Origin: Nitrosopumilus sp.
Lineage (GTDB): Archaea; Thermoproteota; Nitrososphaeria; Nitrososphaerales; Nitrosopumilaceae
DNA length: 64,000 nt
Assembly: GCA_965206745.1 (NCBI GenBank)
Contig: OZ242220.1
Coordinates: 1,664,001-1,728,000, forward strand
Direction: 5' to 3'
The notes beneath the pieces are model-generated. The model had not been told where the DNA came from. It saw nothing but the letters and a program-made list of their open reading frames with translations, and made no database searches. The position numbers and the translations under genes are program-made. Positions 1,308 through 49,957 of this stretch are shown here, piece after piece. The stretch's first letter is position 1; every line of letters starts with the position of its first letter.

Positions 1308-1444
1308 GCCAATACAGGTTTAACATGTAATGCTTCTATGCTATTGTTTTTTATCACAAAAAAATGTATAGATCCATCAGAATCATATATTGCTCTGACT
1401 ATGTTGTTTTATAAAAATTCAATTTGATCAGAGAACCCAATTTC

Positions 1445-1930
1445 TTTTCTAATTGTCTTCTATAATTCATAAGATAATTGTAAGAATATTCTCTCATGTA
1501 TCATTGGCACAGACAATCTCATGTGAATTCTGTGACTAAAAGTAAATTTGTCAATATCTCATCAAATCCAGATCATATAACAGAATCATTTTCCGTATTA
1601 TTTATAACAGAAATAACACTTGCAGTATTTGAGCAGATATGACTAAAGAAAAACCAATTATCCTTCTAGACGTAATGTTTGAGAATCTACAAGAACTTTT
1701 AGTAGATAAAGGATGGGAGGTAGAAACAGTATCAAAAACACTTGGAGTTACTCAAGAAAAGAGAGACGACACAAAAATTCTAGACTATGCAGAAAAAAAA
1801 GGTTGTGTCGTCATTACTGAGGATAAGCAATTCATCAAACGACTACAAGCAAAAGAAATGAATGTTTTTACCGTTAATGATATTGACAAGGCCAAGACTA
1901 TCGATGAAAAATTAAAGAAAGAATTTAGCT
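1445..1930 (+). repeat. Direct repeat copy 1 (~490 bp, includes the PIN gene) flanking the dnd island
   Basis: Aligns by eye with ~14553..15066. Confidence 0.85.
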
Positions 1931-1935
1931 ATTAA
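1639..1935 (+). CDS. Small PIN-fold protein (DUF5615/Mut7-C-like)
   Basis: ILLDVM...L...GWEV...DDTKILDYA...VVITEDKQF matches the pattern of DUF5615-like PIN proteins. Confidence 0.75.
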   Translation: MTKEKPIILLDVMFENLQELLVDKGWEVETVSKTLGVTQEKRDDTKILDYAEKKGCVVITEDKQFIKRLQAKEMNVFTVNDIDKAKTIDEKLKKEFSY

Positions 1936-2588: not shown

Positions 2589-3677
2589 ATGGACAGTCAG
2601 TCAGTCGGTAGTGATGTGTATGGATTTGATGCAATTCGAGGAATTCAGGCTGGACATGAATTTTACGTTGCAATGTGTCCTCTGAAGATCATTCCAAAAA
2701 TATTCATCTTTGACGATTACGATCTTCCTCCGGAATTAAGGGCACAGCGAACTCTTAGAAAAGCTAGAATTCCTGTAATTAAAAACTATATTTTGAATAA
2801 TCCCAAAGATTACATTTTTTCTTCATTGGCTTCATCAGTTGACGGTAAAATGAAATTCACACCGGCTCCATCTCTTGGAGATGATGGAAAACTAGGACGC
2901 CTCTACATAAACATGGATTCTAGATTTCTGATAAATGATGGGCAGCATAGAAGAAAAGCAATTGAGGAGGCACTAAAAGAAAAACCAGAACTTGGACATG
3001 AGATGATCTCAGTCGTATTTTTCCGTGATGATGGATTAAAGCGCAGTCAGCAGATATTCTCTGATCTGAATAAAAATGTAATCAAGCCCACAAAATCATT
3101 AAACATTCTATATGATCATCGGGATGATTTTTCAAAGTTCATTGTAAATCTTATAAATGATGTGGATGCATTCCAAGGAAGAGTTGAATTGGAAAAGACT
3201 ACAATCTCAAACCGCTCAACCAAAGTATTTACTCTAAATGGAATTGCAGATGCATCAATGCGTCTGCTTGGATTAACCAAAGGGCAAAAATTATCCAAGG
3301 ATGAAAAGACTCTACTCAAAGAATTTTGGGAAACCGTATCCAAGAATATGCCTGAATGGCAGATGATCCTGCAAGATAATGCATCTCTTGTAGAACTACG
3401 CAAATATTTTGTCAATACAAACACCAACCTGCTTAATGCACTTGGAATTGCAGGAAAGATAATTATCGATGATTCTCCAGAAACTTGGAAAGAAAAATTA
3501 AAGAACCTCAAAAAGATAGATTGGTCTAGGGAGAATCCAGAATGGGATGGAAGACTCATACGTAGTGGCCAAATGATAAAGCTTGCAATAGGGATTGATC
3601 TGGCAGCCAATGTTATTATAAAAAAATGCGGAGTCAAACTTGATAAAACAAGACAAAAGATAGAGGCAAAGCTATGA
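2589..3677 (+). CDS. dndB: DNA sulfur modification protein DndB
   Basis: AIRGIQAG, RAQRTL, INDGQHRR, QQIFSDLN motifs; first gene of the dnd operon. Confidence 0.93.
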   Translation: MDSQSVGSDVYGFDAIRGIQAGHEFYVAMCPLKIIPKIFIFDDYDLPPELRAQRTLRKARIPVIKNYILNNPKDYIFSSLASSVDGKMKFTPAPSLGDDGKLGRLYINMDSRFLINDGQHRRKAIEEALKEKPELGHEMISVVFFRDDGLKRSQQIFSDLNKNVIKPTKSLNILYDHRDDFSKFIVNLINDVDAFQGRVELEKTTISNRSTKVFTLNGIADASMRLLGLTKGQKLSKDEKTLLKEFWETVSKNMPEWQMILQDNASLVELRKYFVNTNTNLLNALGIAGKIIIDDSPETWKEKLKNLKKIDWSRENPEWDGRLIRSGQMIKLAIGIDLAANVIIKKCGVKLDKTRQKIEAKL

Positions 3678-5146
3678 GTGAATCAATCTTAGAAAAAAGG
3701 ACATTTGCAGATATTTTTAAGGAAATCAGAAATACGTACCTAAATGATGACAGACCTTGGATAATCGGATTCAGCGGGGGAAAGGACTCGACATGCTTGG
3801 TACAGCTAGTCTGGAAGGCCCTCTCTGAACTGCCTCAAGAAAAGTTGCAAAAGGAGATCCATGTAATTTCTTCAGATACGCTGGTTGAAGCGCCCCAAAT
3901 TGCCGAGAGAATTACGGGCAGTTTGGAGAGAATGGAAAAATGTGCCAAAAAAATCAACCTTCCACTTGGAACAAACCTGCTAAGACCTCCAATAACGGAC
4001 ACATTCTGGGTTCGATTGCTAGGCATGGGCTATCCTGCACCTACAACGATGTTCAGATGGTGTACTGACATGCTAAAAATTTCAAACGCTGATCGTTTCA
4101 TCAAGGATACCGTCTCCAAGCACGGCGAGGCCATAGTTCTACTGGGTATGAGAAAAAGCGAGAGTTCTGTGCGGGATCAGGTCATGAACATGTACAAAAT
4201 TGAGAACAGCGTACTCTCAAGGCATTCCAAATTTGATCAGACCTATGTGTATACCCCCATTGAAGATTTTTCGACAGAGGATGTCTGGAATTATCTGCTG
4301 ACAAACAAAAATCCCTGGGGTGATGAGAATCGCAACTTGCTTGCAATGTATCAGGATGCAAATGCCAGGGAATGTCCTCTAGTAATTGACACCACAACTC
4401 CTTCTTGTGGCGGTGGACGTTTTGGTTGCTGGACATGCACTGTGGTAGACAAGCAGAGTTATCTTACAAATTTGATTGAAAGTGATGAAAAAAATGAATG
4501 GATGGAGGTATTAGCAGAACTAAGACAGAAACTAAAGGATACCCAGGATTCTAGCGTCTGGGAAATATACAGGGAGAAAAAGAGACGCAATGGCAATGTT
4601 GATCTAAAAAATCACGGTGAAGGATACACGCCAGGTCCATACAAAATGGAATTTCGAATACAATATCTAAAGGATCTGCTCGAAGGGCAAATAAAGATAC
4701 AGAAACTCAAAAATGATCCAGAGATGGAATTGATTTTAGAAGATGAGATTCACGAGATACAAAGAATCTGGAGGATGGAGCAGGGAGACTGGAAGAATAC
4801 AGCATATGCAATATATGCAGAAATAACTGGAAGAAACATAAACAGCGTTCAAAACGAGTTGGGAGACTTTGGCGATGCAGAACAGAATCTACTTGAAGAG
4901 ACATGCTCTACACATAACGTTCCCTTCAAACTGGTAAGCAGTCTTCTTAATTTGGAACTAAAGTCCCAGAGTGCAAACAGGCATGCAAAAATCTTTGACA
5001 AGATAAAGAACGAGTTATCCAAAGAATGGAGAGATGTAGAGGATACAAAAGAGTTTGAAAAAATTATAGTTGAACTGCAAAAGAAAAAGGACATTCGGGA
5101 CAAAATAAAGACATTGGCAGAATCAGATATCAAAAAAACACAGTGA
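3674..5146 (+). CDS. dndC: DNA phosphorothioation sulfurtransferase DndC (PAPS-reductase family)
   Basis: RPWIIGFSGGKDS, GYPAP...FRWCT, CPLVID...SCG..RFGCWTCTVV; overlaps the dndB stop (ATGA). Confidence 0.95.
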   Translation: MSESILEKRTFADIFKEIRNTYLNDDRPWIIGFSGGKDSTCLVQLVWKALSELPQEKLQKEIHVISSDTLVEAPQIAERITGSLERMEKCAKKINLPLGTNLLRPPITDTFWVRLLGMGYPAPTTMFRWCTDMLKISNADRFIKDTVSKHGEAIVLLGMRKSESSVRDQVMNMYKIENSVLSRHSKFDQTYVYTPIEDFSTEDVWNYLLTNKNPWGDENRNLLAMYQDANARECPLVIDTTTPSCGGGRFGCWTCTVVDKQSYLTNLIESDEKNEWMEVLAELRQKLKDTQDSSVWEIYREKKRRNGNVDLKNHGEGYTPGPYKMEFRIQYLKDLLEGQIKIQKLKNDPEMELILEDEIHEIQRIWRMEQGDWKNTAYAIYAEITGRNINSVQNELGDFGDAEQNLLEETCSTHNVPFKLVSSLLNLELKSQSANRHAKIFDKIKNELSKEWRDVEDTKEFEKIIVELQKKKDIRDKIKTLAESDIKKTQ

Positions 5147-7440
5147 AGATCATGATAATAGATAAAATCATCATAACTAATTTTGGAGTATATGGAGGGA
5201 CAAATCAATTTGATTTTACTACGAGCCCTCGAAAAACTATAGTTTTATGTGGCGGGATAAACGGAGCTGGAAAAACCACCCTCTTTGAATCAATCATGCT
5301 GTGCTTTTATGGCAAAGACTATGATGATGTTGGTTTAGGGAAAAGATACAATCAAAAGATCCTACGCTCATTTCACAAGAATCTGAAGACAAATTTTGTC
5401 TCTACTGACTCATCAATTTTAATAATATTTCAGACTGCATTTGATGGCAAAGTTAAAAAATACAAAATAGTTAGAACATGGAAAAACAATGACGGTAAAA
5501 TTAATGAGAGTTTATCCGTCCAAAAATATGATCCTCAACTAGCAAAGTTTAGAGACCTAAACATGTCAATTCCCACAAAGAGAAACAGGCACACTGATGC
5601 TAAACTTGCGGAGAGAGACTCTATTGAAAAATCAGAATGGCAGCAATTCATCAACGAATTGATTCCAAGAGGCATTGCAAAGCTATTCTTTTTTGATGGC
5701 GAACAAATTCAAAATATTGCAGAAGATGACAATGAAAACAAATACATCCAATCCTCATTTGATACTCTACTTGGGTTGGATCATGTAAAGCAGCTACAAA
5801 AAGATATTGGATTTGTACTGTACAGAGAGACAAAGAAGAAGAACACCAACGAGAAACAAACTGAGGCAAACTATGATACCATGACTCCAGACAAACTAAA
5901 GCGTGAAATGCTAAAAAAAGAACTAGTGGAATTTGTCGAACTGCGCAACAATTACAAGCAATATAAAAAAAATTACGACAAACCGATGCATTTGGAAAAT
6001 TTTGAATATATGCTAAGATTTGTCACAAGTGATATGCGTGAAAAAGAATTTACTGGAAATGAACTACAATCATTGCTCTTCATACAAGAGATATTAGAAG
6101 AGAAGATTCAAGGGATGGGTATTGAACTCCAAGAATGCAATGAATTGATAGAATCAAGTCACAAAGAATTCCTCTTGGCAACAGAGAGATTCCAAAAGAT
6201 TGGTGGAAGTTATTATGAGAAAGATAAAGAGCTAGGAAAAAATCAAGAAGAGACAACATCAAAGATTGCAGTCACTGAAAAAGAGATCCGTGACTTGTGC
6301 TCTGCAGAGTTGCCATTTAGTCTGATTCCAGAGCAGCTCAAAGAGATAAAAGAGCAGATCGAATCTGACAAGGATGTCATTCGACTAAACTATGAAATGG
6401 AGATCCTTGAGAAGAACACTAAAAAGATCTCCCTTGCATTAAATTCCAAGTCATTTCTGTCAGATATTCCAACTAATACAAAACAGATGATCAACACAGA
6501 ACTGACCAAGCTGTTAAGTGAGGATTTGGAGAAAAAGCCCACACCAGATACCTTCTTTAGCCTGTCCCCATCAGATACGGAGAGATTCCTGCGTATCATT
6601 GAGGATTCCCAAGATGCCACCATTGAGAAGATCGAGAAATTGACCGTATCCTATGGAATTCAAAAGAGAGCTTTGGAGAAATTCGATGTAATAGGTAAAA
6701 TCAAGCCTGAGATAGATGAAATAAGATCAATAATGTCTGAAAGAGATCTACTTCGGGACAAAGAGCATGACTTGAAGGATCGATGTGATAAAATTGAATT
6801 TGATTTGTCACAAGCCCGAACAAGGATTAAAATGCTAAATGCAAAGATTCGAATCAGTCTAGAACGACAAACAACCTCTGAAAAATTATCCTCCAGTGAG
6901 TCAACTGCCAGTTCTGTGCTAAATGTCTTAAAAGCATACTCTGACTCACTACGGACAGAAAAAATATCTCTCTTGGAGGATAATATATTGAAGGGTCTTG
7001 ATATTTTACTGCACAAAAAGGATTTCATCAAAAAGGTGACAGTTAACAAGGAGACTTTTGTAGTCACACTGTATGACAAACATAAGAACAAGATAACAAA
7101 AGATCGAATGTCCAAAGGTGAGCTTCAGATTTATGCAATTGCACTTGTCTGGGGATTAGCAAAGACCTCTAGAAGGCCTCTACCATTTATGATTGACACC
7201 CCTCTTGCAAGACTGGATGTGGAACACAGGGAAAGTCTTATCGAGTCATTCTTCCCTAGAACATCCCAGCAGACAATAATACTATCCACTAACTCTGAAA
7301 TTGGTCCTGCGTATTACAAGAAACTAAAGCCATACATTTCAAAAGCATATACGATAAAGTTTGATTCTGATAAAGGGGCAACAAGCATCAAGAAAAACTA
7401 TTTTGATAATAAGGAGAAGATAGCAGTTGAAAGCCACTAA
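5143..7440 (+). CDS. dndD: DNA sulfur modification ATPase DndD (SMC-like)
   Basis: Walker A GGINGAGKTT, LFFFDGEQI, long coiled coil, MSKGELQI, IDTPLARLD..HR, QTIILST. Confidence 0.93.
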   Translation: MKIMIIDKIIITNFGVYGGTNQFDFTTSPRKTIVLCGGINGAGKTTLFESIMLCFYGKDYDDVGLGKRYNQKILRSFHKNLKTNFVSTDSSILIIFQTAFDGKVKKYKIVRTWKNNDGKINESLSVQKYDPQLAKFRDLNMSIPTKRNRHTDAKLAERDSIEKSEWQQFINELIPRGIAKLFFFDGEQIQNIAEDDNENKYIQSSFDTLLGLDHVKQLQKDIGFVLYRETKKKNTNEKQTEANYDTMTPDKLKREMLKKELVEFVELRNNYKQYKKNYDKPMHLENFEYMLRFVTSDMREKEFTGNELQSLLFIQEILEEKIQGMGIELQECNELIESSHKEFLLATERFQKIGGSYYEKDKELGKNQEETTSKIAVTEKEIRDLCSAELPFSLIPEQLKEIKEQIESDKDVIRLNYEMEILEKNTKKISLALNSKSFLSDIPTNTKQMINTELTKLLSEDLEKKPTPDTFFSLSPSDTERFLRIIEDSQDATIEKIEKLTVSYGIQKRALEKFDVIGKIKPEIDEIRSIMSERDLLRDKEHDLKDRCDKIEFDLSQARTRIKMLNAKIRISLERQTTSEKLSSSESTASSVLNVLKAYSDSLRTEKISLLEDNILKGLDILLHKKDFIKKVTVNKETFVVTLYDKHKNKITKDRMSKGELQIYAIALVWGLAKTSRRPLPFMIDTPLARLDVEHRESLIESFFPRTSQQTIILSTNSEIGPAYYKKLKPYISKAYTIKFDSDKGATSIKKNYFDNKEKIAVESH

Positions 7441-7801
7441 AATAAAGCTCAGTGCCAAGAGCCAGAACCTCTTAGGCAGATTAAAATCCAAAACTGGTCT
7501 GACTCCGAATTTCCTTGCAAGGTTTGCATTCTGTCTATCACTCAAAGAGAGATCATCTCCGAATCCCGATGAATATGACAAAGATGGCTCGGAGATTGAA
7601 ACTAGTATTTTGTTTGGAGAGTATGAGCCACTCTATCTTGGTCTGATGAGAAACAGACTGAAAAAAGACGGAAAGAGTGTTGAAACTGATTTGAATGAGA
7701 TGGCTCGCTGCCATATCAATCGCGGAGTCATTGCACTTGCTCCAAGAATCCAGAGTTTGGAGAGTTTTTACGAATTAATCAGGGAAGAGCGAAATGTCTG
7801 A
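7427..7801 (+). CDS. dndE: DNA sulfur modification protein DndE
   Basis: LKSKTGLTPNFLARFAFCLSL...LFGEY...HINRG; position after dndD. Confidence 0.9.
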   Translation: MKATKIKLSAKSQNLLGRLKSKTGLTPNFLARFAFCLSLKERSSPNPDEYDKDGSEIETSILFGEYEPLYLGLMRNRLKKDGKSVETDLNEMARCHINRGVIALAPRIQSLESFYELIREERNV

Positions 7802-8957
7802 GATAAAGTTCCCAATCTACCTTGATTCACATGCCACCACTCCTGTAGATTTGCGTGTTTTTGAGGAGATGAGGCCGTACTTTACAGAGAATTTTGGCAA
7901 CGCCTCAAGTTTGGATCATTCCTTTGGATATGACGCATCAATTGCAGTCTCTCAAGCCAGAGAGAAGATTGCAAAGGCAATTGGGGCAAATACCGATGAG
8001 ATTCTTTTTACATCAGGGGCCACAGAATCTGATAACCTGGCATTACTTGGTGTGATGGAGCGAAACAAGAGCAAGGGAAATCATCTCATTACATGTGTAA
8101 CAGAGCACAAGGCAGTTTTGGATACTGCAAAACATCTGGAGAAGAATGGATGTAAAGTGACATATTTACCAGTAGATGAGTTTGGCTGCATTAGTTTGGA
8201 TGAACTAAGATCTGCAATAACAGATGAGACTGTGCTGATTTCAATAATGTTTGCAAACAACGAGATTGGAACCATTGCAGATGTTGCAGAGATTGGAACA
8301 ATAGCAAAGGAACACGACGTACTGTTTCATACAGATGCAGTACAAGCACTGGGTCATATTCCAATTGATGTCAAAAAAATGAACATTGACTTGATGTCAA
8401 TGTCATCTCACAAAATATACGGACCTAAGGGGATAGGCGCACTGTACATTAGAAGTATCTTGCCACGCGTAAAGATTGATTCGATTGTGTATGGCGGAGG
8501 ACAGGAGAGAAACATTCGCTCTGGGACTCTGAATGTTCCAGGAATTGTGGGTTTTGCAAGAGCAGTTGAAATTGCACATAAAGAGATGAATTCTGAGAAT
8601 ATTAAATTTAAAAGATGGACTGATACAATGTTGGAAAGATTATCTAAAGTAGGTGCAAAACTAAATGGACATCCTACAAATAGACTTGCTCATAATTTGA
8701 ATATCAGATTTGATGGAATAGAAAGCAAGGCAATAATTAACTCAGTGGCAAAAAAATTAGCAATATCTGCAGGATCTGCATGTACTACTCATATGATAGA
8801 GCCATCTCATGTGCTTTTAGCCTTGGGATTAAATGAGAATCAGGCCCACTCATCAATTAGAATTGGGTGTGGGAGATTCAATACTGATGAGGAAATCAAG
8901 ATAGCAACAGATGAAATTCATGCCTGTATCAATCTATTAACAAAAATCAAGATTTAG
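7794..8957 (+). CDS. dndA: Cysteine desulfurase (DndA/IscS-like)
   Basis: YLDSHATTP, FTSGATE, HTDAVQ, SSHKIYGPKG (PLP Lys), SAGSAC (catalytic Cys); overlaps dndE. Confidence 0.9.
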   Translation: MSEIKFPIYLDSHATTPVDLRVFEEMRPYFTENFGNASSLDHSFGYDASIAVSQAREKIAKAIGANTDEILFTSGATESDNLALLGVMERNKSKGNHLITCVTEHKAVLDTAKHLEKNGCKVTYLPVDEFGCISLDELRSAITDETVLISIMFANNEIGTIADVAEIGTIAKEHDVLFHTDAVQALGHIPIDVKKMNIDLMSMSSHKIYGPKGIGALYIRSILPRVKIDSIVYGGGQERNIRSGTLNVPGIVGFARAVEIAHKEMNSENIKFKRWTDTMLERLSKVGAKLNGHPTNRLAHNLNIRFDGIESKAIINSVAKKLAISAGSACTTHMIEPSHVLLALGLNENQAHSSIRIGCGRFNTDEEIKIATDEIHACINLLTKIKI

Positions 8958-8992
8958 TAGTAAAGATCATCTTTTTAAGATAGATTCAATGG

Positions 8993-9859
8993 TTGTCATT
9001 TATGACAATTAAAAAAATTGGCTATAAGGAAATTGACATATCTCAAGATGTGCTTGATACAAGCAAATCCCAAGCACGACAGACAAATGTTAATGAAAAT
9101 GTAAAAGATTTAGCTCAAAGTATAGAACTCCAAGGATTATTTTCGCCAGTTCTCGTTATCAAAGTAAATGAAAACAGGTATGAGTTAATTGCAGGTCAGA
9201 GAAGAATGAAAGCTCATAGAGATATTTTATCAAAAAAAGATCCTAAAAAATTTGGTAAGATTGGAGCTTTTATTTATGAAAATTCCATGGAAGAGTGGGA
9301 GAAGAAGGCAATTTCAATTAACGAAAATTTTAATCAGGTTCCAATGAGTGAAGAAGATAAAATTGCAGCAGTAACTGTTTGCTATAATACATTTAATTCT
9401 ATTCGCGTAACTGCTGAAAAAACAGGTATTTCAGAAGAACGAGTAAGTAAATATGTAAAGTATACTCGCCTTCCTCCTATTCTGAAAAAACTAAAAGACG
9501 ATGGAAAAATTTCATTAGGTACTGCTTTAGATACTGCAAATCTTTTTGAAATTGACAGTTCAGAATTAGGAGATATTCCTGAAGAAGAAGTGAAAACATG
9601 TGCATTAGAAAGTGAAAAATTAAGTTCAAAACAGAAAAAACGTGTAAAAGAAATCAAGATTGAAAAACCCGAATTTAAAATTGAAGAGATCATCAATAAA
9701 GTCAGAACTAAAAAAGAGACTTCTCATAAAATTGAAACAGAGGTAGTGTCAGACACATATGCTCGTGTTGAAGTATACAAAGATACCAAAAAATTAAAAT
9801 CCGTTGCACTTGCTGCATCAGAATTAATCGAAGATGGATTAAAGCTCAATAAATTATAA
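8993..9859 (+). CDS. ParB/Srx-domain protein with HTH and possible C-terminal RHH
   Basis: LAQSIELQGLFSPVLV...YELIAGQRRMKA, SINENFNQ, then HTH-like TAEKTGISEERVSKY. Confidence 0.8.
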   Translation: MSFMTIKKIGYKEIDISQDVLDTSKSQARQTNVNENVKDLAQSIELQGLFSPVLVIKVNENRYELIAGQRRMKAHRDILSKKDPKKFGKIGAFIYENSMEEWEKKAISINENFNQVPMSEEDKIAAVTVCYNTFNSIRVTAEKTGISEERVSKYVKYTRLPPILKKLKDDGKISLGTALDTANLFEIDSSELGDIPEEEVKTCALESEKLSSKQKKRVKEIKIEKPEFKIEEIINKVRTKKETSHKIETEVVSDTYARVEVYKDTKKLKSVALAASELIEDGLKLNKL

Positions 9860-9860
9860 A

Positions 9861-10616
9861 ATGTCCATTCTAAAAGATGGTCTAAGACTTGCCAAATTAA
9901 AACGAAGTATTGGACGTGATCATGCTGATCCTAGACCTCTGTTACCAATCCAAGTTGCCACATATCTAAAAGAAATGAAAGAGGATCTAAATGATTTATC
10001 AAATGTAAAAACAGCTAAAAGACTTGGAGTTTCTACAGCGTTAATTTCTAATTTCTTAAGTTTACTTGATGCTCCAACTAACAAATATGATTATGTATGG
10101 GGATGGGGCACTTCAACAGATGCTCGACTTGCATGGTCAATGTGTAGGCGAATGGGAATTGAATATAAAAAAGGATTGATTTCTGAGGAAGAATTCGGAA
10201 AACTTGTCAGTGGTGCCCTTAATAATCAAATCCCTCCAAAAACTGTTGAAGATATTTTAATTTTAAAAAAAAGATATCCTGAAAAATCTTTTAATGAATG
10301 CTGTAAAGAGATTCTTAATCTAATCCCTGAAAGTATAACATCCATAATTTTCATTGCCGATTTGGACCATTCTATTATTGAAAAAATCCATAAGAAATCC
10401 ATTTCTGCCTCTAAATCTGAAGAAGATATTGCAGAATCGATATTATCAAAATACATAGGTCAAGAAAACATCGAAGGAGTGCTGTTAAAAAATAACAAAC
10501 ATATCAAAATTGCATTTACAGAGAAAGGTCGTGAAAAATTAGACAAAATTTCAAAGCAAGAAAGAAAATCAATTGTTGAAATAATTAATTATTTATTTTT
10601 AAAAGAAGGATTTTGA
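9861..10616 (+). CDS. HTH-containing protein resembling the central ParB DNA-binding region
   Basis: LLPIQVA...TAKRLGVSTALISNFLSLL; 1 bp after the previous stop. Confidence 0.6.
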   Translation: MSILKDGLRLAKLKRSIGRDHADPRPLLPIQVATYLKEMKEDLNDLSNVKTAKRLGVSTALISNFLSLLDAPTNKYDYVWGWGTSTDARLAWSMCRRMGIEYKKGLISEEEFGKLVSGALNNQIPPKTVEDILILKKRYPEKSFNECCKEILNLIPESITSIIFIADLDHSIIEKIHKKSISASKSEEDIAESILSKYIGQENIEGVLLKNNKHIKIAFTEKGREKLDKISKQERKSIVEIINYLFLKEGF

Positions 10617-10617
10617 G

Positions 10618-11718
10618 ATGAGTGTATCAGAACTTTTACAATATGCATCTGTGGGCGAACAAGGTTCAATCTATTTAGGAAAAAATACTGTCGTTAATGG
10701 ATCTAAACATGGCAGAGAAATTGGAATTTTTTCACATATTCATCAAGATCATATTGAATTATTTACTTATGCCATGCATGAATGTACTGCCATCTTTGTA
10801 TCTCCACCGATATTTGATTTACTTGCTGCGATAGAGCAAAATGAGAATGATAGTGTTTCCTCCGAAATATATTTTGGAGGAAGGCACATACATCGTTTAG
10901 ATTTCGATCGAACTATAAATCCAAAAAAATTTCTGAGGAATTTGGATCCTAAAAAAAATTATTCGGATCAAATTACATTAAAAAAAGCTCATCATATTTT
11001 AAGCTCAACACAAATTTTAGTTACCACAGACGATGACAAAGATATTGGATATTCTAGTGATTTTTCATATTCTGAAACCGAACCCATGAAATGTAATGCA
11101 CTTGTACTTGATTCCACACAGGGTGATCCTATGTTTAATACAATTGTTGATTCAAATAGTCTTGAAAATAGGTTAGTAGAAGATGTAAATAGAGAGATTG
11201 AAGCAGGTAATCCAGTGTGTATTAGATCACATGTTGGAAGATTACAATATATTATGTCATTACTTTCTAAAAAAATTGGAATGGATATTCCTTTCTTATC
11301 TGAATCTACGAATAAAAAATTAGCTCCAATTTATAACAAACATGATATGCCAATAAGAAAAATCATTGATTCGTATTCTTATGACGGCAGAGAAAAACTA
11401 GAAAAAAATTATCCATTCATAGAATTTAAAACAAACCACGAAGCAAAATCTGAGCCTGAAATGGATAATCGTTCAACTGTTTTTCATTTGGAAGGATTTT
11501 GTTTGGGAGGAAATGCAACTTTTAAACAAAAGCTAGGAAATGAAAAAAATTATTATTTGGAATTTGCTGATCATGGAAATTATGATAATATTTTAAAATA
11601 TGTTAATAGATGTAATCCTGAATTAGTAATTATAGATAATTATAAAAGCGGATGGGGAGAAACATTAGCTGAAAAAATTAAGAGTGATTTAGATATTGAT
11701 GCAATAGCTCAACCTTAG
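10618..11718 (+). CDS. MBL-fold metallo-hydrolase/nuclease (beta-CASP-like)
   Basis: SHIHQDH (HxHxDH), AHHILSS, YSSDF, LVLDST and C-terminal ADHG motifs. Confidence 0.8.
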   Translation: MSVSELLQYASVGEQGSIYLGKNTVVNGSKHGREIGIFSHIHQDHIELFTYAMHECTAIFVSPPIFDLLAAIEQNENDSVSSEIYFGGRHIHRLDFDRTINPKKFLRNLDPKKNYSDQITLKKAHHILSSTQILVTTDDDKDIGYSSDFSYSETEPMKCNALVLDSTQGDPMFNTIVDSNSLENRLVEDVNREIEAGNPVCIRSHVGRLQYIMSLLSKKIGMDIPFLSESTNKKLAPIYNKHDMPIRKIIDSYSYDGREKLEKNYPFIEFKTNHEAKSEPEMDNRSTVFHLEGFCLGGNATFKQKLGNEKNYYLEFADHGNYDNILKYVNRCNPELVIIDNYKSGWGETLAEKIKSDLDIDAIAQP

Positions 11719-11726
11719 GTGATCAT

Positions 11727-13106
11727 TTGGAAGAAACTCTAAAAAACGTAATGAAGGATTTATTTGTTGAATCGAATAAAGATATTTTTTCACAGTTGTC
11801 TGAAAAAGAACTAGAAAAATATATTTCCTTTACACATATTCCAGAATTTAATTCAGAAAAAATTTATAACAAATTTAAGAAAGAAAAAATAATAAATTTC
11901 AAAAAAATTATTTATGATTATGAAGAAAAAATAATAGGATTATCTTCATATAAAACTTCAACAAACAATATAAAAACAACCATTCAAGAAAATCCTGCTT
12001 ATATCAAAAGATTAGTTTTAGATTTGAATCATGTAGTTAAACAAACTCTTTTGGATTTTTTAATATCTTGTTTATATGAGTCAAATTTTAAAGATTATGA
12101 TGTTGAAACTTTTGAAATAATTTATTCCAAATTTGAAAATTTCCTAGATAATGAATTATTTTCTGTTTTCAGTTTTATAACATTAAGAAATTTTGATCAT
12201 CATAATGATTCTCTTATGTTGCCTAATGATCAAATTTTGAGATTACGAACACCAGAAGAATTTTCTGTAATTTGCAATGTCGGTGGAAACGATTCTGAAC
12301 CCAAAATAAACCCTAATTTTCAAAACATCAAATTTGTGATCGGAGCCCATATTGCTAAAACAGATATCAATGATCAAAAAATTAAAGAGAAATTTGAAGC
12401 ATTTTTGTTTGCATTAAAAATTTTTCATGCTGGAGATGTACAATTTGGTGGTATTTACTATACAGATTCGGTAAATTGGCGTGTAAAACCCACAATCACG
12501 ATTAAGACTGAGCCTATTTTGGGAAAATCATCTACAAAATACAAATTAGAATCAGAGAATTTAACTGAAAGTGATTTCAGTAAATTCATTAAGGATTTTT
12601 CTGAAATTAATTTCACTAAAGGAAAATATGTTTTTTTAGGACGTTCAATAAAGCGATTTTCTCAAGCTATTGAAAACGAACACAAATTAGATAAAATTGT
12701 GGATTTTATCACTTGTTTGGAATCACTATATTCTTCAAATGAACAACAACTTTCTTTTAGATTTGCTATGAGAACTGCTAGCGTTTTAGGTCAAACGCCT
12801 GATCAAAAAATTGCAATTCAAGAATTTATTTTACAGATCTATAATTTAAGAAGTAAAATCATACATGGTGACCAAATCCCCCCTGTAATAATAAATGGAC
12901 ATGAGATTGATTTAGATAGTTGTCTTATAAATTTAGAAAAAATTTCTAGAAATTCAATAAAAAGTTTTCTTGATTTTATAAAGGAATTTAAAAGTAAAGA
13001 AGAATTACATAAGATGATTGATAATTCCATCTATGAATTATCTTCACAAGAAATTTTCTTAAAGAGTTTTAAAGAATTGAAACTTTCTACTGTAAATATT
13101 TCTTAA
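11727..13106 (+). CDS. Apea-like HEPN domain protein
   Basis: C-terminal LESLY...LSFRFAMRTA..LG...IYNLRSKIIHG (Rx4H HEPN motif). Confidence 0.8.
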   Translation: MEETLKNVMKDLFVESNKDIFSQLSEKELEKYISFTHIPEFNSEKIYNKFKKEKIINFKKIIYDYEEKIIGLSSYKTSTNNIKTTIQENPAYIKRLVLDLNHVVKQTLLDFLISCLYESNFKDYDVETFEIIYSKFENFLDNELFSVFSFITLRNFDHHNDSLMLPNDQILRLRTPEEFSVICNVGGNDSEPKINPNFQNIKFVIGAHIAKTDINDQKIKEKFEAFLFALKIFHAGDVQFGGIYYTDSVNWRVKPTITIKTEPILGKSSTKYKLESENLTESDFSKFIKDFSEINFTKGKYVFLGRSIKRFSQAIENEHKLDKIVDFITCLESLYSSNEQQLSFRFAMRTASVLGQTPDQKIAIQEFILQIYNLRSKIIHGDQIPPVIINGHEIDLDSCLINLEKISRNSIKSFLDFIKEFKSKEELHKMIDNSIYELSSQEIFLKSFKELKLSTVNIS

Positions 13107-13429: not shown

Positions 13430-14509
13430 TTAAGAATTACCAGTTACGTCATTGTAAAACTTTTTGGTATTTCTCCATTTTAATACAGCATCAACATTTT
13501 TTATTTTTTCAAGATTTTTATCAATTAATTCCAAGATGTCAACGAATGATTCGTCATTTTCAGCACCTATATTTGAAGCATCATATAATGCAGGCCATTT
13601 AATAGCCCATGCATCATGTTCAAGTGAATGTTTCAATGGGATAGAGCATTTATGATAATACCTACGAATAGTAGGATCTGCTTTGCTTAATTTCTCAATC
13701 TTAACATTAGCACTCGGAGATGCTGAGATTCCAATCCATTGAGGAAGTTCATAATATTGTGCAGCGTCAGTTACAGCCTCACCAATAAAAAAATTCTTTT
13801 CATTATAAAATGATCCTATGGAAAAACAACCTCGTATGGGAATATCTAATTTTATACTTTGTGTAATTGAACTCCACATAGTCTTACCAAATTTTTTTAA
13901 TAAATCATTGATATCATCATTCTCCAGCGTAATGATTATCGTATCTGAGAATGAATTAAAATTCATTTGAGATCCTTGTGTAAATTCCTGTTGAAGTAAA
14001 TCTTGAAGTTGTTTTGTAAATTTATTCCAAGTATCAGGAATACCTCGTGGATCAAAATTCTTCCAAAAATCTTTAGTTCCCAACATGTCAATATATGAAA
14101 CTAATCCAAATTTTGGGTTAAATTCTTCTAGCACTTTTTTTTTATAGATTTTGTTGGTATGATCTGTACTTTTAATCCAAGCCTGAAATTCAGGAAATTT
14201 TCTCAAAAACTTTGAATCTATTATAGGAGGATTTTCTTTGAGTGTTTCTAATCCACGTGGAGTGATCTTAAAGACGCCCGAACTTGAATTTTCCAATAAT
14301 AATGCCTGACGTAATTCAGATACTGCCCATCTAACTTGGGCATCAAATTTAGATTGTTTTCCACCTGAAGTTAATTGATTTCTTTCATCTTCTGTAATAT
14401 CAAAATGTTTGATTAGATAATTTGTCAAATCACCAAGTTTATGAGATTTCTCATCATTTAGAAACTCAAGAATTGGTTTTCACAGTTTATTTTTTGATGG
14501 TATTGGCAT
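13430..14509 (-). pseudogene. Mrr N-terminal wHTH fused to a class III nucleotide cyclase-like domain, with in-frame TGA at codon 10 (an internal TTG start at 14428 is possible)
   Basis: MPIPSKNKL*KPILEFLND...SGGKQSKFDAQVRWA...L.QA.LLE...G.FKITPRG is Mrr_N-like. YIDMLG, FSDTI, IRGCFSIG and IGEAVTDAA are cyclase-like. Confidence 0.7.
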
Positions 14510-14552
14510 GGATTATTTTTAAATCAATCGTTTAAGAGACTTTCTCAATATT

Positions 14553-15066
14553 TTTCCTAATTCTATTCTAATATTCATGAGATGATTGTAAGAATATTCT
14601 ATTCAAACTTTCCGTATAACTCAATTATTCTCTCATGTATCATTATCACAGACAATCTCATGTGAATTCTGTAACTAAAAGTAAATTTGTCAATATCTCA
14701 TCAAATCCAGATCATAGAGTCATTTTCAGTATTATTTATAACAGAAATAACACTTGCAGTATTTGGGTAGATATGACTAAAGAAAAACCAATTATCCTTC
14801 TAGATGTGATGCTTGAAAATCTGCGAGAATTTTTAGAGGATAAAGGATGGGAGGTAGAAACAGTATCAAAAACACTCGGGGTTGCTCAAAAAAGTAGAAA
14901 TGACACAAAGGTTATGGACTATGCAGAAAAAGAAGGTCGTGTCATTGTTACTGAGGATAAGAAATTCATCAAGCGACTACAAGCAAAAGAAATGAATGTT
15001 TTCACCGTTGAAGATTTTGAGAAAGCCAAGATTATCGATGAAAAATTAAAGAGTAAATTTAGTTAA
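14553..15066 (+). repeat. Direct repeat copy 2 flanking the dnd island
   Basis: High similarity to 1445..1930, with small indels. Confidence 0.85.
14773..15066 (+). CDS. Small PIN-fold protein (DUF5615-like), paralog of 1639..1935
   Basis: Start set at MTKEKPIILLD by alignment with copy 1. Confidence 0.75.
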   Translation: MTKEKPIILLDVMLENLREFLEDKGWEVETVSKTLGVAQKSRNDTKVMDYAEKEGRVIVTEDKKFIKRLQAKEMNVFTVEDFEKAKIIDEKLKSKFS

Positions 15067-15215: not shown

Positions 15216-16001
15216 TCACTGCAGATTCGGAAACCGCTCCTTGATGTACTGCGCCTCATCAATCCCGTCAAGCCTCTGCGCCCGAGGCGCCACACCCCGG
15301 ACGAAAAACTCCTTTCCGTGCTCACCCCGCAGATACAGAGGACGCGATGAGGGAAGGACCTGTATGATACATATCGTCTTATCCTGTATCTGCCGAAAGG
15401 CCAGGTTCAGCTTTGTCAGGATAAACGTATTGTCCTGTATGAGGTCAAGCAGCCTGTCATGCATGTGATTGGCAAACTCGTCCTCATAGTCTGCAAACCT
15501 CTCCAGGTTTTTGTCCCTCTCAAGGCCTGCAACTGTTCCATCAGAACTCACCCCAAGGTACAGGAATCCGCCGTACTTGTTTCCAAAGGAGCATACGGCA
15601 GTTGCAAAGCGCTCCTGAACCTCCCTCTTTTTCTTTCTGACTATCTCGCCCCTCTTCTGGGGCTCCACCTCTAGGCGGTCCATGATACTATCATACTGGT
15701 AAAATTCCTTGAATTCATTGTGAGCATCCTCGCCCTTTGGTATCTCCTTGTCACTCAAATCTGCAAATGCCGGCACTCCAGAGTCCGGATTTTGCAGGTT
15801 CTGGGATATCTCTATCTTTTTGACCCTGCCTACACTGCCGTCGTGCAGCCTGACCTTGATTCCGTGCGGGTGGGATTCACTTGAGGTTAGGATTTCAGCG
15901 ACTGTTCCCTGTATGAGACGGCCTGTTCTCTGGTCTTGCTTTGTCTCAATGCTGACTGTGCCTCCAATGGATATCTGGTTTTTAGTTGGAATATCTGCCA
16001 T
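15216..16001 (-). CDS. YwbE-like N-terminal domain fused to an AlbA_2 (Schlafen-like) domain
   Basis: KQDQRTG.L..G.V.EILT.S..HPHGIKVRL.DG.VGRV (YwbE); EFKE...SFGN..GG.LYLGV..DG.V.G (AlbA_2). Confidence 0.8.
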   Translation of the reverse strand: MADIPTKNQISIGGTVSIETKQDQRTGRLIQGTVAEILTSSESHPHGIKVRLHDGSVGRVKKIEISQNLQNPDSGVPAFADLSDKEIPKGEDAHNEFKEFYQYDSIMDRLEVEPQKRGEIVRKKKREVQERFATAVCSFGNKYGGFLYLGVSSDGTVAGLERDKNLERFADYEDEFANHMHDRLLDLIQDNTFILTKLNLAFRQIQDKTICIIQVLPSSRPLYLRGEHGKEFFVRGVAPRAQRLDGIDEAQYIKERFPNLQ

Positions 16002-17405: not shown

Positions 17406-18017
17406 ATGACGGAATTTGTACAACCTGTTGTAGATCTAGATGCATTTAACTGCCCACATTGTGGGTCATATTCTGATCAGTTTTGGAATTCAATTATGCA
17501 TGGTGAGAGAATTGAGGGATTTGATGTAGGTAGATGTAGAAGATGTAGGGAAATCACAATTTGGAAAGATGCAGCGATGATATTTCCATCAACAGGCAAT
17601 GTAGCAATGCCAAATCCCGATATACCAGATGAAATTAAAAATGATTATAATGAAGCACGAGATATAGTTTCACGTTCTCCAAGATCAGCATGTGCATTAC
17701 TAAGATTATGTATCGAAAAAATATGTACAGAGAAAGTACCAACAGGTAAAGACCTGAATGAAAAAATAAAAAAATTGGCAGAAAAAGGACTAAATGACAA
17801 AATAATAAACGCACTAGATTCTGTCAGAGTGATCGGCGGACAAGCAGTTCACCCTTTGAAAATGGATTTGAAAGATGATGTAAATACTGCAACTAAACTG
17901 TTTGATATTATCAATTATATTTCAGACTGGGCTTATACGAAGGAAAAAACCATAGATCATATTTTCAAGAGTTTGCCAGAAGGAAAAAAAGAAGCAATCG
18001 AGAAAAGAGATTCATAG
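17406..18017 (+). CDS. DUF4145 (HEPN-like) protein with N-terminal Zn ribbon
   Basis: CPHC..CRRC, DYNEAR, SPRSACALLRL, RVIGGQAVHP. Confidence 0.8.
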   Translation: MTEFVQPVVDLDAFNCPHCGSYSDQFWNSIMHGERIEGFDVGRCRRCREITIWKDAAMIFPSTGNVAMPNPDIPDEIKNDYNEARDIVSRSPRSACALLRLCIEKICTEKVPTGKDLNEKIKKLAEKGLNDKIINALDSVRVIGGQAVHPLKMDLKDDVNTATKLFDIINYISDWAYTKEKTIDHIFKSLPEGKKEAIEKRDS

Positions 18018-18166
18018 ATATTATGATTTTGATGTTATAAGATATGATTTTTGAATTGCCAGATCAAACCTTGCAGGAAAAATAAATCATCATAATTTGA
18101 CACTATCCTCCAGATATGGTGCTATTTAGATTGGCGTTTTGAGTAATACTTTATAGCATATGTTGT

Positions 18167-18448
18167 ATGTTAGAATGTATGAGTGAAACTCTGTCTACGC
18201 TTAATGAACAAGTTTTGGAAAAAATCTGTCAAACGGTATTGAGTAGAAATCCTCGAAATACAAATCATCAAAATGACAAAGATATTATTTATTTTAAAGG
18301 CTTCTGCAGTGGTTCAATTCATAATCAATATCTTCAATATTACAATTCAACAAATATGAAAATCCCATCTGTTCAAGAAATAGATCAGATGTTAGATATT
18401 GTGAAGATGAGAATCGATGATTTTTTTGATAATAGCACACATACGTAA
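18167..18448 (+). CDS. Hypothetical protein
   Basis: ORF only. Confidence 0.45.
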   Translation: MLECMSETLSTLNEQVLEKICQTVLSRNPRNTNHQNDKDIIYFKGFCSGSIHNQYLQYYNSTNMKIPSVQEIDQMLDIVKMRIDDFFDNSTHT

Positions 18449-18524
18449 AAATGATACCACCATATCAAAAATAAAAAGAGATTGAACTGATTGCTTGATA
18501 AGAATAAAACAGTACACACTGTTT

Positions 18525-18663
18525 AGTATTTTCACTCACCTATACAATAGGTGAAGTTTTCAACTTATCTCTATGTATATTCTAATCATCCTACATATGG
18601 AGAATGTACTGAAACATTCTAACTTTACAGATGAATAAAACCTAGACTCAATTAAACAGTGTA
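18525..18663 (+). repeat. ~140-bp element (family E), inverted copy at 37318..37455
   Basis: Aligns to the reverse complement of 37318..37455; contains the palindrome tcacctat-aca-ataggtga; ends in caattaaacagtgta. Confidence 0.75.
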
Positions 18664-18703
18664 AGATCTCCAATAAATTAAGCTAGTTTGAAGAAAGAGA
18701 TTT

Positions 18704-19660
18704 TTAAGATCGTCCGATTGGAAAATTAAAAAGAAAAGTATTACCAATTCCTTTTGAAGTGGGTTCAGTTTCATCAGATGGTGATTTTTGTTGCCACTTG
18801 TATGGTTTAGCATAGAGTAGCTGGATTTCAGGGTATTTGAATGCAAATTCAGAGAATGCAAAGCAGTGAACTTTGGGACCACCATTAACAAGACAGATAT
18901 CATATTCATTATTGTATTTAGAGTAGATTTCCTCTAGTTTTGCAAGTGTTTCTTTTGGATTCAATGCAGGAATTTTTATAAAATCAGAATCAACTATAAT
19001 TTTTTCACATTGTTTAATGGTAAATTCATTCCATCTTTCACGATCTCCTTCAGAATATTCTGCCAATGTAATGATCTTATCATGTCCCCATTCTTCTATT
19101 ACTGAGCGCAATCGCAAATGTTCCCAACCTAAAAACAAGACCAACAAGATCTTTTTGGATTGATCAGGAATGCCCGGATTAGTGGGCATGATGACTATCT
19201 CTTCCAACCCTTGAGCAAAATTCATGGTGTAATCTTTAGGTTCAGAGTATGCCAAATGTACTTTGAGTCTTTTTTGTATGCAAATATTGAGAATCGAATA
19301 CAAAAATAATCTTGTAAATGATGTAACATCAATCAGTACACTTTCAACATTATCCAAATTTTGAATTAACATGTCATTAAAATCAGTAGGATTGTTAGGT
19401 GTGATTCTAAATATTTTTTTTTCTTCAGTCATAGGCGACAAAAGAGTCTTGATTTTTTCAAGATGTTCCAAGTTTTTATTCATTAAAGCAGAATCAGCAG
19501 GTTTGAATAAATTGATCAAAGCACGATCGAATTTGGTGTTATTTTGTGCTTTTTGTAGACATCCCAAGGTTCGTTCTTCGTATCCTGCCGAACACAAGAA
19601 GAGGTCATATCGATCAAGCAAATTATTTTGAAGATTATATTCAACATTATTAGAATTCAT
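18704..19660 (-). CDS. Partner of the ATPase-SIR2; probable tandem Rossmann/CARF-like protein
   Basis: SAGYEER, LIDVTSFTR, YSEPKDY, LFLGWE, GPK, LYAKP; translationally coupled (ATGA) to the upstream gene. Confidence 0.55.
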   Translation of the reverse strand: MNSNNVEYNLQNNLLDRYDLFLCSAGYEERTLGCLQKAQNNTKFDRALINLFKPADSALMNKNLEHLEKIKTLLSPMTEEKKIFRITPNNPTDFNDMLIQNLDNVESVLIDVTSFTRLFLYSILNICIQKRLKVHLAYSEPKDYTMNFAQGLEEIVIMPTNPGIPDQSKKILLVLFLGWEHLRLRSVIEEWGHDKIITLAEYSEGDRERWNEFTIKQCEKIIVDSDFIKIPALNPKETLAKLEEIYSKYNNEYDICLVNGGPKVHCFAFSEFAFKYPEIQLLYAKPYKWQQKSPSDETEPTSKGIGNTFLFNFPIGRS

Positions 19661-41747: not shown

Positions 41748-41930
41748 TGCAAATCAAACATTCTGAAAATATATAACAATGTCGAATGATTTGATCCTGA
41801 AGTTTGGGTGTATTGTTCAGATCACTTGTGGAAGAATTTGAGAACGCTCCAATCTGGCAAGTGAAACCTCCATTCAATTAAACAGTGTACATCTGATCAC
41901 TAATCTTGATCAGAGCCTATCAGTACAGAC

Positions 41931-43595: not shown

Positions 43596-43867
43596 TGCAA
43601 ATCAAACATTCTGAAAATATATAACAATGTCGAATGATTTGACCCTGAAATTTGGGAGTTTTGTCAAGTGTGTTAGACATCAAATATGGATTCTTTGAAT
43701 TCAAACTCTGAGAATGGCTCGGATCATAAATGGTGATCTGATCACTAATCTTGACTAGAACCGAGTGGAACATTGTTTGACCAAGATCATGGATCAGTTA
43801 AATCAAAGCAATGATTCTAGCAGTGAATAATAGATAGCCTTTTTTTCAACCCTTCTAAGGTACTAAC

Positions 43868-44140: not shown

Positions 44141-44305
44141 GATTCTTTCCAGTTTTAGTTGATTGGTCATACAGAAATGGATCTTCAAATCATATGAATA
44201 ATTTTATTGCGAAATTATCAGTCAATTATATGCCTGAAGATGACTGGGACTCATCACAAACGGTGATCTGATCACTAATATTGACTAGAGCCTATCAGTA
44301 TCGAC

Positions 44306-49929: not shown

Positions 49930-49957
49930 TTCCCAAGACACAGAATATTTCCACACA

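Follow-up and report, generated by a model that had tools for sequence, protein, structure and literature searches.

What is it that makes use of a phosphorothioation (PT) mark on DNA when none of the familiar PT-reading partners is recognizable around the genes which do the marking? The question is raised by a stretch of DNA from Nitrosopumilus sp., contig OZ242220.1, positions 1,664,001 to 1,728,000 of the forward strand. That stretch in its entirety, 64,000 nt, is here called the ‘window’. It contains the genes dndBCDEA and, immediately behind them, four further genes, g1 through g4, here collectively the ‘cassette’. These encode, in order, a ParB/Spo0J-type protein with a helix-turn-helix (HTH), a second ParB-type DNA-binding protein, a predicted compact beta-CASP nuclease of the metallo-beta-lactamase (MBL) fold, and a HEPN-like protein bearing an Rx4H motif. 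The answer that we favor, though by a modest amount, is that the cassette is the effector arm, i.e., a restriction or instead an abortive-infection arm, of the adjacent DndBCDEA system in Nitrosopumilales-type archaea. We favor this answer because of the cassette's operon structure, its linkage to dnd, its content of predicted nucleases and DNA binders, and the finding of no other PT partner among 44 window open reading frames (ORFs). The proposal, that is, is of a cassette which takes the place held elsewhere by DndFGH, PbeABCD, or DndI. As such it is a credible and apparently undescribed dnd-linked module, presumably PT-dependent and presumably antiviral.

The preliminary description of this DNA, as made from the sequence alone, had placed four same-strand genes 35 nt behind dndA with gaps of 1, 1, and 8 nt, and the ORF coordinates bear this out exactly. 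All four genes are found on the plus strand, in one uninterrupted run with dndBCDEA. To the extent that gene order and spacing can speak to it, g1 to g4 are confirmed as forming one operon. An alternative start for g1 is the ATG at 9002, nine bases downstream of its TTG. The GQRR, HTH, HxHxDH, and Rx4H motifs which that description had listed are all present in g1 to g4 and are conserved as well among homologues, and these therefore are not chance strings. Its statement that the cassette is ‘AT-richer’ holds relative to dnd (28.8 vs. 38.3% GC) but not relative to the neighborhood: GC content is largely about 30% across the window's first 34 kb and about 45–50% across its last 16 kb, the cassette thus being no outlier among its neighbors. 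A scan for sigma-70 promoters and terminators gave no signal beyond that of shuffled sequences, the sigma-70 model being one that is unsuited to an archaeon.

The assignment of dndBCDEA is, based on matches to PADLOC-DB v2 models (E 1e-43 to 4e-175), unambiguous. PADLOC-DB v2 was scanned with 14 + 30, i.e., 44, window ORFs. Among these no DndF, DndG, PbeA, PbeB, PbeD, or Ssp effector was found, and PbeC models matched DndD alone, that is, a paralogue. The earlier statement that neither dndFGH nor pbeABCD is recognizable here thus stands. Nor do g1 to g4 match any PADLOC-DB v2 model at E ≤ 0.01, and no match to an already named system emerged from the literature that was searched. Modification loci of the dnd type usually are decoupled from DndFGH, alternative nucleases are common in dnd neighborhoods, those listed being of HKD, HNH, REase, URI, HEPN, and PIN types, and ParB-superfamily proteins, such as DndB, are recurrent in PT systems (PMC10853773). 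The main text of that same source nowhere uses the terms ‘MBL’, ‘lactamase’, and ‘metallo-beta-lactamase’. Indeed, no account of a ParB plus beta-CASP plus HEPN cassette beside dnd was found in the literature as searched, with the supplementary neighborhood tables of PMC10853773 falling outside of that scope. Among archaea, PbeABCD has been characterized, and dndCD was counted in that work in 6 Thaumarchaeota (Xiong et al. 2019, PMC6459918). Within Nitrosopumilus and other ammonia-oxidizing archaea (AOA), dnd is described as being sparsely distributed; of the dnd locus, the searched text of these three thaumarchaeal genome papers names dndA-E alone (PMC12780485, PMC7848895, PMC6790972).

Is the cassette's content what would be expected of an effector? 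Consider first the protein of g3. It has no Pfam match, including to Lactamase_B, Lactamase_B_2, or Beta-Casp above cut-off (one orthologue, that of the Nitrosotalea locus introduced below, reaches 23.2 bits vs. a Pfam cut-off of 27, and a precomputed PF12706 assignment is present on 1 of 32 homologue clusters). As a single sequence searched against the PDB it yields noise, matches requiring a profile instead. With a profile built from an alignment of 28 family members, the PDB matches are to PH1404 (3af5; 4.4e-15), aCPSF/FttA (about 2e-10), and Cas14 (1.6e-9), and then to INTS11 and CPSF73. Cas14 is a type VII CRISPR effector. The g3 motif HIHQDH spans residues 40–45, and H40, H42, H126, D148, D165, and H319 are invariant in all 28 sequences. 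Aligned with PH1404, HIHQDH falls opposite THAHLDH, H126 opposite AGHILGSA, D148 opposite GDF, D165 opposite ESTYG, GRLQ opposite GRAQE, and H319 opposite SGHAD. Present, that is, are the MBL motifs HxHxDH, H, and D, along with beta-CASP motifs A (acidic) and B (His). At motif C, ‘TDNYRS’ lies opposite the ‘TVHGEP’ of PH1404, so that the motif C His which marks the RNA branch is absent. In the DNA-acting Artemis/SNM1 branch, motif C likewise is without His, a resemblance which here is a lead only. The g3 product, as judged from these alignments, is a compact nuclease of beta-CASP type whose metal site is complete. Residue 168 of the window g3 (11119–11121) is Gln, at a position which is His in at least 90% of the 28 members (‘DATHGDP’). 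This position probably is not a metal ligand since the aligned PH1404 residue is Tyr. Searching 72,556 plasmids by tblastn gave no match to g3, and searching 50,697 phage records by blastn gave none to the cassette.

The g4 protein is less easily placed. Neither Pfam, NCBIfam, nor PADLOC returns a match to it, and its sequence and profile searches against the PDB are empty as well; NCBIfam also returns nothing for two orthologues, for seven distant relatives, or for the Bacillus cereus protein considered below. Its motif, ‘RSKIIH’, runs from R375 to H380, with both of these residues invariant in 24 of 24 sequences (g4 plus 23 close homologues), which keep LESLYSS and FRFAMR blocks as well. A more distant alignment consists of the window g4 and 98 of 150 listed matches, picked by eye as being near full length, with the 52 others being shorter proteins or profile matches that start late. 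Across those 99 members, H380 and Y372 do not vary at all, and at least 90% of the members have R375, S376, R310, F311, D326, E332, R349, and R408. Searched against 1.84 billion representatives, the g4 profile recovers 10,493 proteins at E ≤ 1e-3, 2,663 at 1e-10, and 122 at 1e-30. By this measure g4 belongs to a very large, unnamed family of approximately 450-aa proteins, of which it makes up just one small branch.

What connects g4 to HEPN proteins is indirect, i.e., a combination of motif, model, and relatives. An AlphaFold2 (AF2) model of g4 (predicted local distance difference test, pLDDT, of 90.6; predicted template modeling score, pTM, of 0.86) consists of an N-terminal alpha/beta part and a helical C-terminal domain. 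The Rx4H motif in this model ends a long helix (358–379) and is followed by a beta-hairpin and then by another long helix. A conserved Rx4-6H within a helical domain, as expected of HEPN proteins, thus is seen. Tblastn against the same 72,556 plasmids gives four partial matches, of 16–22% coverage, one of which is a B. cereus gene with the RefSeq name ‘HEPN domain-containing protein’. Using hhalign, the 99-member profile aligns with this B. cereus protein over 292 columns (99.2%, E 6e-20), the latter itself being without Pfam or NCBIfam match. The nearest named Atlas clusters carry HEPN_Apea, ApeA_NTD1, or YopA, at scores of 0.86–0.88, i.e., below 0.9 and a lead only. A PADLOC match to DzbB in 2 of the 99 members, at 5e-5, is not interpretable and was not used. 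We describe g4 as ‘HEPN-like’ and ‘ApeA-like in layout’, a plausible but unproven description, and refrain from counting it among the HEPN proteins.

As to DNA binding, g1 is matched by PF02195 (1.1e-13; 51.5 bits vs. a cut-off of 26.3). Against the PDB, ParB, Noc, and Spo0J chains are matched at 1e-6 to 6e-3 over residues 21–179. Its motif IAGQRR spans residues 66–71, and 3 of 3 g1 orthologues carry SQARQ, SIxxxGL..PV, and GQRR without variation. An N-domain above curated cut-off and a GxRR arginine patch, both characteristic of the ParB/Spo0J family, are present, and the C-terminal part is Lys/Glu-rich. The nucleoside triphosphate (NTP)-pocket motifs appear from the alignment to be intact, and CTP or other NTP binding is predicted from their conservation. 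The NTP specificity of the ParB fold is not reliably predicted by sequence analysis or by AlphaFold3 (PMC12704722). The g2 protein is without a ParB N-domain, and its residues 26 to about 117 weakly resemble the ParB HTH/DNA-binding domain (HTH_ParB at 7.8e-4, below Pfam cut-off, with orthologues at 3.3e-5 and 2e-6; profile vs. PDB, Spo0J/Noc at 6e-3). Its AF2 model (pLDDT 91.1, pTM 0.62), as searched using Foldseek, has a top ten consisting of nine Noc/ParB matches and one to Spo0J, itself a ParB, at probabilities of 0.97–1.00 with a best E of 8e-3, i.e., none at or below 1e-3. The last approximately 90 residues of g2 form a small alpha/beta domain without family assignment. The domain calls of the preliminary description accordingly carry over for g1 (ParB-like), for g2 (its HTH now being a ParB-type DNA-binding domain), and for g3 (its MBL now being beta-CASP), while the HEPN call for g4 is left as plausible and unproven.

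Does the cassette go with dnd elsewhere? The g2, g3, and g4 families are small: grouped at 90% identity, and counting self, they number 23, 32, and 31 clusters. Clusters with equally sized longest contigs number 9 that are common to g3 and g4 and 7 that are common to g2 and g3 (sizes of, for example, 7266, 3308, 12951, 4823, and 1824794). Equal size here presumably means the same contig, with the cassette then traveling as a unit. When 185,579 species genomes were scanned using the g3 alignment, the pattern was matched 11 times, and three of these matches were confirmed as loci: L001, from a Nitrosopumilus metagenome-assembled genome (MAG), L002, from a Nitrosotalea MAG, and L003, from an alphaproteobacterial MAG (table). 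Co-occurrence with dnd was the check to be made, and in both of the other loci with enough flank (2/2), as in the window, the cassette adjoins dnd. The preliminary description would have been refuted by homologous cassettes lying mostly apart from dnd or by a match to a named system, and neither was seen among these loci and the sources searched. The distance between the two is 27–50 nt in all three of the informative loci, i.e., the window, L001, and L002. Identities to the window proteins are 30–47% for g1 to g4 and 30–66% for the Dnd proteins, with dndB also present in L001. Because identity within the cassette is this low, and because the L001 arrangement is convergent, the linkage is old and survived an inversion. 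Chance adjacency is unlikely as well because dnd is sparse among AOA. In the window, L001, and L002 alike, the GC content of the cassette is below that of its dnd neighbors, in L002 (3–4995) at 34.7 vs. 36.9% and in L001 at 45.3 vs. 52.6%. Host GC varies widely among these loci and the GC content of the cassette tracks it, which is amelioration.

A number of observations nonetheless weigh against an effector role that is tied to PT. The dnd-linked sample consists of three loci, all of them Nitrosopumilales, and these may share a single ancestral fusion and thus not be independent. In L003 no dnd is visible, on a contig which, at 2.9 kb, is too short to show either g1 or dnd. The wider g4 family was without dnd within 3–6 kb in 2 of 2 plasmid members inspected. 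Beside the dnd unit of the window is a defense island (17406–21960, 30379–31860), within which unrelated systems cluster anyway. For g4 and its 23 close homologues, no HEPN model of Pfam is matched at E ≤ 1, what Pfam does return being scattered chance matches, distant relatives with a weak HEPN match number 2 of 99 (HEPN_Apea at 5.6e-4 in one, HEPN_RiboL-PSP at 1e-3 in another), and Foldseek searches of the g4 model against the PDB and BFVD give nothing at E ≤ 1e-3, with top matches that are unrelated large proteins. The g1 protein is above the cut-off of a partition-ParB model, making a plasmid-like role compatible with its sequence. Lastly, PT dependence, DNA or RNA cleavage, and virus resistance are, for this cassette, predictions that are drawn from genes and their linkage, as are a sensor role for g1 and g2 and an effector role for both g3 and g4. 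The interpretation given in the preliminary description thus is supported in part.

Several of those points can be read together as indicating an autonomous defense system of a ParB-type sensor pair, a beta-CASP DNase, and a HEPN-like RNase, i.e., one which does not read PT and which merely travels and clusters with dnd in defense islands. The island of the window includes PD-T7-4 (PADLOC 4.5e-73; DUF4145), a CARF6-like gene overlapping a gene for one protein that is ORC/Cdc6-like plus SIR2 (ThsA-like), and a further SIR2 gene. Right behind g4 in L002, at 5032–6456 and 8806–10509, are found a larger, second beta-CASP/RMMBL protein and a GmrSD enzyme (DUF262 + DUF1524), and in L003 a GmrSD_N protein (2201–2941) lies directly 3′ of the g3-like gene. 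DndFGH itself, furthermore, has been argued to work decoupled from modification genes (PMC10853773). Such autonomy nevertheless does not readily account for dnd adjacency in 3 of 3 informative loci despite low identity and one inversion, nor for that adjacency given how sparse dnd is in AOA (PMC12780485, PMC7848895), and L003, with its 174 nt upstream, cannot demonstrate an absence of dnd. We consider an autonomous system to be unlikely, though far from negligibly so.

The same loci bear on a different possibility, which is that the cassette is no weapon but serves the modification pathway as an accessory, with its ParB-like proteins regulating or targeting Dnd and with g3 processing or repairing PT-related lesions or nicks. 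The sole NCBIfam match of g3 is to TIGR04122, a ligase-associated DNA-damage-response exonuclease, at 1.8e-7 and far below that model's cut-off. DndB itself is a ParB-superfamily regulator (PMC10853773), and the position of g1, close behind dndA on the same strand, makes co-transcription possible. In L001, however, the convergent orientation of cassette and dnd indicates that co-transcription is not required, a dndB is already present both there and in the window, and the conserved Rx4H protein, of a family related to ‘HEPN domain-containing’ proteins, has no obvious repair role. An accessory role thus strikes us as quite improbable.

Table. Features of the window and of three homologous loci. 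Coordinates are those of the window or, for L001 to L003, of the respective contig.
Feature	Position	Strand	Evidence or arrangement
Left direct-repeat copy, with PIN-like DUF5615/Mut7-C gene (1639-1935) and upstream region	1436..1935	+	Pfam DUF5615 3e-8
dndB	2589..3677	+	Pfam DndB 6e-121; PADLOC DndB 9e-146
dndC	3674..5146	+	PADLOC DndC 4e-175; PAPS_reduct 2.6e-11
dndD	5143..7440	+	PADLOC DndD 7e-150; AAA_23
dndE	7427..7801	+	Pfam DndE 2e-23; PADLOC 1e-43
dndA, cysteine desulfurase	7794..8957	+	PADLOC DndA 4e-164; Aminotran_5 1e-84
g1, ParB/Spo0J-type N-domain + HTH, 288 aa, start TTG	8993..9859	+	PF02195, TIGR00180
g2, predicted ParB/Noc-type DNA-binding domain, 251 aa	9861..10616	+	HTH_ParB, Foldseek
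g3, predicted compact beta-CASP MBL-fold nuclease, 366 aa	10618..11718	+	profile vs. PDB
g4, HEPN-like Rx4H protein, 459 aa, start TTG	11727..13106	+	motif conservation
Mrr_N winged-helix protein, 332 aa, with C-terminal part of about 250 aa without family	13430..14428	-	PF14338 7e-17 (residues 3-65)
Right direct-repeat copy, with second PIN-like DUF5615 gene	14546..15066	+	Pfam DUF5615 1e-8
L001, Nitrosopumilus MAG, g1-g4	2707-6814		gaps 1, -8, -4 nt; convergent with dndA-E-D-C-B (6841-12773), 27 nt between
L002, Nitrosotalea MAG, g1-g4			dndA (cut by contig end), 50 nt, then g1-g4 on same strand; gaps 0, 0, 5 nt
L003, alphaproteobacterial MAG, 2.9 kb			g2-like, g3-like, then GmrSD_N protein at g4 position; 174 nt upstream

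The dnd genes and cassette are bracketed within the window by a direct repeat of approximately 0.5 kb (repeat families D1, D7, and D9; blocks 84–97% identical; spacing about 13.1 kb), whose two copies each carry a DUF5615 gene, the proteins being 78% identical. What is enclosed is dndBCDEA, g1 to g4, and a gene for an Mrr_N protein, as a unit of about 13.1 kb, the layout of which resembles the insertion, or the exchange, of a cassette between paralogous genes. The dnd genes, g1 to g4, and the Mrr_N gene would then have been acquired as one unit, which counts in favor of the cassette as the effector arm of DndBCDEA. The Mrr_N protein is matched in PADLOC by mREase_IV (7e-7), over its N-terminal part only, and its gene has no tblastn match in L001 to L003 nor a named Atlas relative at ≥0.85; it could be a modification sensor in its own right. 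Scans of the window for tRNA genes and for Rfam families gave zero each, the unit therefore being without a tRNA-type integration site, and no integrase was found inside of the unit.

Bracketing by repeats invites consideration of g1 and g2 as partition or maintenance genes of an integrated mobile element, with dnd as its cargo and with g3 and g4 as addiction or exclusion genes. Consistent with this, g1 passes TIGR00180, the ‘ParB/RepB/Spo0J family partition protein’ model (1.3e-16; 60.9 bits vs. a cut-off of 58.45), over residues 14–168, i.e., over N-domain plus HTH. ParB-like proteins are encoded as well by thaumarchaeal integrative and conjugative elements (PMC6563490), and transposases are found near the cassettes of L001 and L002. 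On the other hand, no ParA/Walker partner, nor a replication, integrase, or conjugation gene, is seen within the bracketed unit (Pfam, PADLOC). Indeed, there is no ParA-type match in the Pfam tables of 49 window ORFs, with parS sites not having been searched for. A TraD/VirB4-like ATPase lies 37 kb off in DNA of different GC content, and the four genes are together beside dnd in three genomes even though their surroundings differ. A maintenance role thus is very improbable indeed.

That ATPase (861 aa; 49958–52543, in DNA of 50% GC) is pointed to only weakly by NCBIfam as being of the TraD/VirB4 conjugation type. A reading of it as DndH was rejected, the match (5e-8) spanning the ATPase domain only. 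It is found along with seven unannotated same-strand ORFs in a block of about 45–50% GC (48000–56600), which may be an integrated conjugative element. Elsewhere within the window, a YwbE (DUF2196) plus Schlafen/AlbA_2 fusion gene (15216–16001, minus strand) has a GC content of 50.8% within DNA that is approximately 30% GC. Between 22400 and 24000, around an ORF at 22682–23260, are repeats of 40–112 nt (D2–D6, D8, D10), 64–92% identical and 250–800 nt apart, which suggests tandem paralogous gene fragments. Five serpin genes lie in tandem (40014–49589, minus strand; Pfam Serpin 1e-117 to 6e-120), no two with the same N-terminal extension; expanded sets of serpins are described for sponge-associated thaumarchaea (PMC6790972). 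Lastly, two proteins of approximately 550 aa (24514–26163 and 35587–37269) have as their sole match NCBIfam WING-49, at 8e-6 and 1.6e-5.

How might the cassette, as effector arm of DndBCDEA, then work? DndBCDEA would mark host DNA with PT, which is the established function of this family and here is known from the genes alone. The g1 and g2 proteins would bind DNA as the surveillance part, loading or sliding as do ParB, Noc, and KorB, and in doing so would tell self, i.e., PT-marked DNA, from foreign DNA. DNA so judged foreign would be cut or degraded by g3. More speculatively, g4 may be a HEPN-like, second-line RNase which shuts down translation, and one which perhaps is switched on by small products of DNA breakdown. 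The latter is suggested by analogy to ApeA, a HEPN tRNase, of which Ec2ApeA is activated by 5′-phosphorylated deoxydinucleotides (bioRxiv 10.64898/2026.01.26.701840). In its most specific form this becomes PT-guided immunity that is built upon a ParB-type, nucleotide-gated clamp: g1 and g2 would scan for backbone sulfur and license g3 on unmarked DNA, with the resulting di- or oligonucleotide fragments activating g4. As a whole that chain of steps is tentative, and we think it rather doubtful.

Comparison with known systems indicates where the cassette is familiar and where it is not. Like DndFGH (also DptFGH), it is a multi-gene module found by dndBCDE(A), with DNA-binding or translocating parts plus a nuclease, and presumably it too spares PT-marked self DNA. 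Unlike DndFGH, g1 to g4 have no match to DndF, DndG, or DndH, and the cassette is without an ATPase motor: DndH, of approximately 1,700 aa, includes a HerA/FtsK ATPase (PMC10853773), versus a cassette consisting of a ParB-type NTP-binding fold, a beta-CASP protein, and an Rx4H protein. Like PbeABCD, it consists of four genes immediately behind the dnd genes of an archaeon, and Pbe function is PT-dependent. PbeA, however, is helicase-like, PbeC is SMC-like, PbeB and PbeD are just 66 and 152 aa, and Pbe does not cleave viral DNA (PMC6459918), whereas g1 to g4 include two predicted nucleases and have no Pbe match.

With DndI, SspE, and SBD-HNH (ScoMcrA-type) proteins the cassette would share the combination of a nuclease with an NTPase or DNA-binding sensor that reads PT status. 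The DndI ATPase is stimulated by PT (PMC11662687). These are single polypeptides with HNH or DUF1524 nucleases, however, while the cassette's beta-CASP nuclease is a separate protein. A DUF262 domain related to ParB is found in SspE and GmrSD, but g1 is nearer to canonical ParB/Noc/Spo0J than to DUF262, and g1 to g4 have no PF03235 or PF07510 match (Pfam). GmrSD domains do occur in the cassette's neighbors in L002 and L003. ApeA and g4 are of similar size class and layout, having an N-terminal part plus a helical domain in which a long helix ends with Rx4H and an insertion precedes the next helix. The ApeA active site is in H3, with an insertion between H3 and H4, which agrees with the g4 model (bioRxiv 10.64898/2026.01.26.701840). 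Differing from ApeA, g4 and its close homologues have no PF18739 or PF18862 match, the single weak HEPN_Apea match being in 1 of 99 relatives, and ApeA is a stand-alone gene versus g4 as the last of a four-gene operon.

Of the beta-CASP nucleases (aCPSF1/FttA, CPSF73, INTS11, Artemis/SNM1, Cas14), g3 shares MBL motifs 2–4 and beta-CASP motifs A and B with PH1404, aCPSF, and Cas14, with Cas14 chains being the sole named defense protein among the PDB matches of the g3 profile. It differs in being just 366 aa, in lacking KH and other N-terminal domains, and in its motif C His not being conserved. As to the CTP-gated clamps ParB, Noc, and KorB, g1 has the N-domain motifs (SQARQ, GQRR) plus HTH, and the g2 fold matches the Noc/ParB DNA-binding domain. 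Here, however, there is no ParA partner, function would be split over two proteins, one of them without an N-domain, and both are embedded with two predicted nucleases by a DNA-modification operon.

Most Dnd modification loci are without DndFGH, and what serves as their restriction agent is an open question (PMC10853773). The g1 to g4 cassette is a candidate for that missing PT partner in ammonia-oxidizing archaea, organisms which are globally abundant and for which few antiviral systems have been characterized. For restriction its parts are unusual, i.e., a protein with a canonical-looking ParB N-domain, a second ParB-type binder, a minimal beta-CASP protein, and a member of the Rx4H family, and it thus is a candidate for a new effector architecture in PT-based defense. 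If indeed it is such an effector, then a new architecture would be added to PT-based defense, the ParB fold and beta-CASP nucleases would gain further roles in immunity, and there would be a functional handle on the g4 family, with its more than 10,000 representative clusters. Should the clamp mechanism hold as well, then this would be the first PT restriction module to combine a ParB clamp with a beta-CASP nuclease, and the first defense nuclease to produce the activating ligand of a HEPN effector from its own operon. Ammonia-oxidizing archaea would in that case possess a two-stage circuit, of restriction and then of abortive infection.

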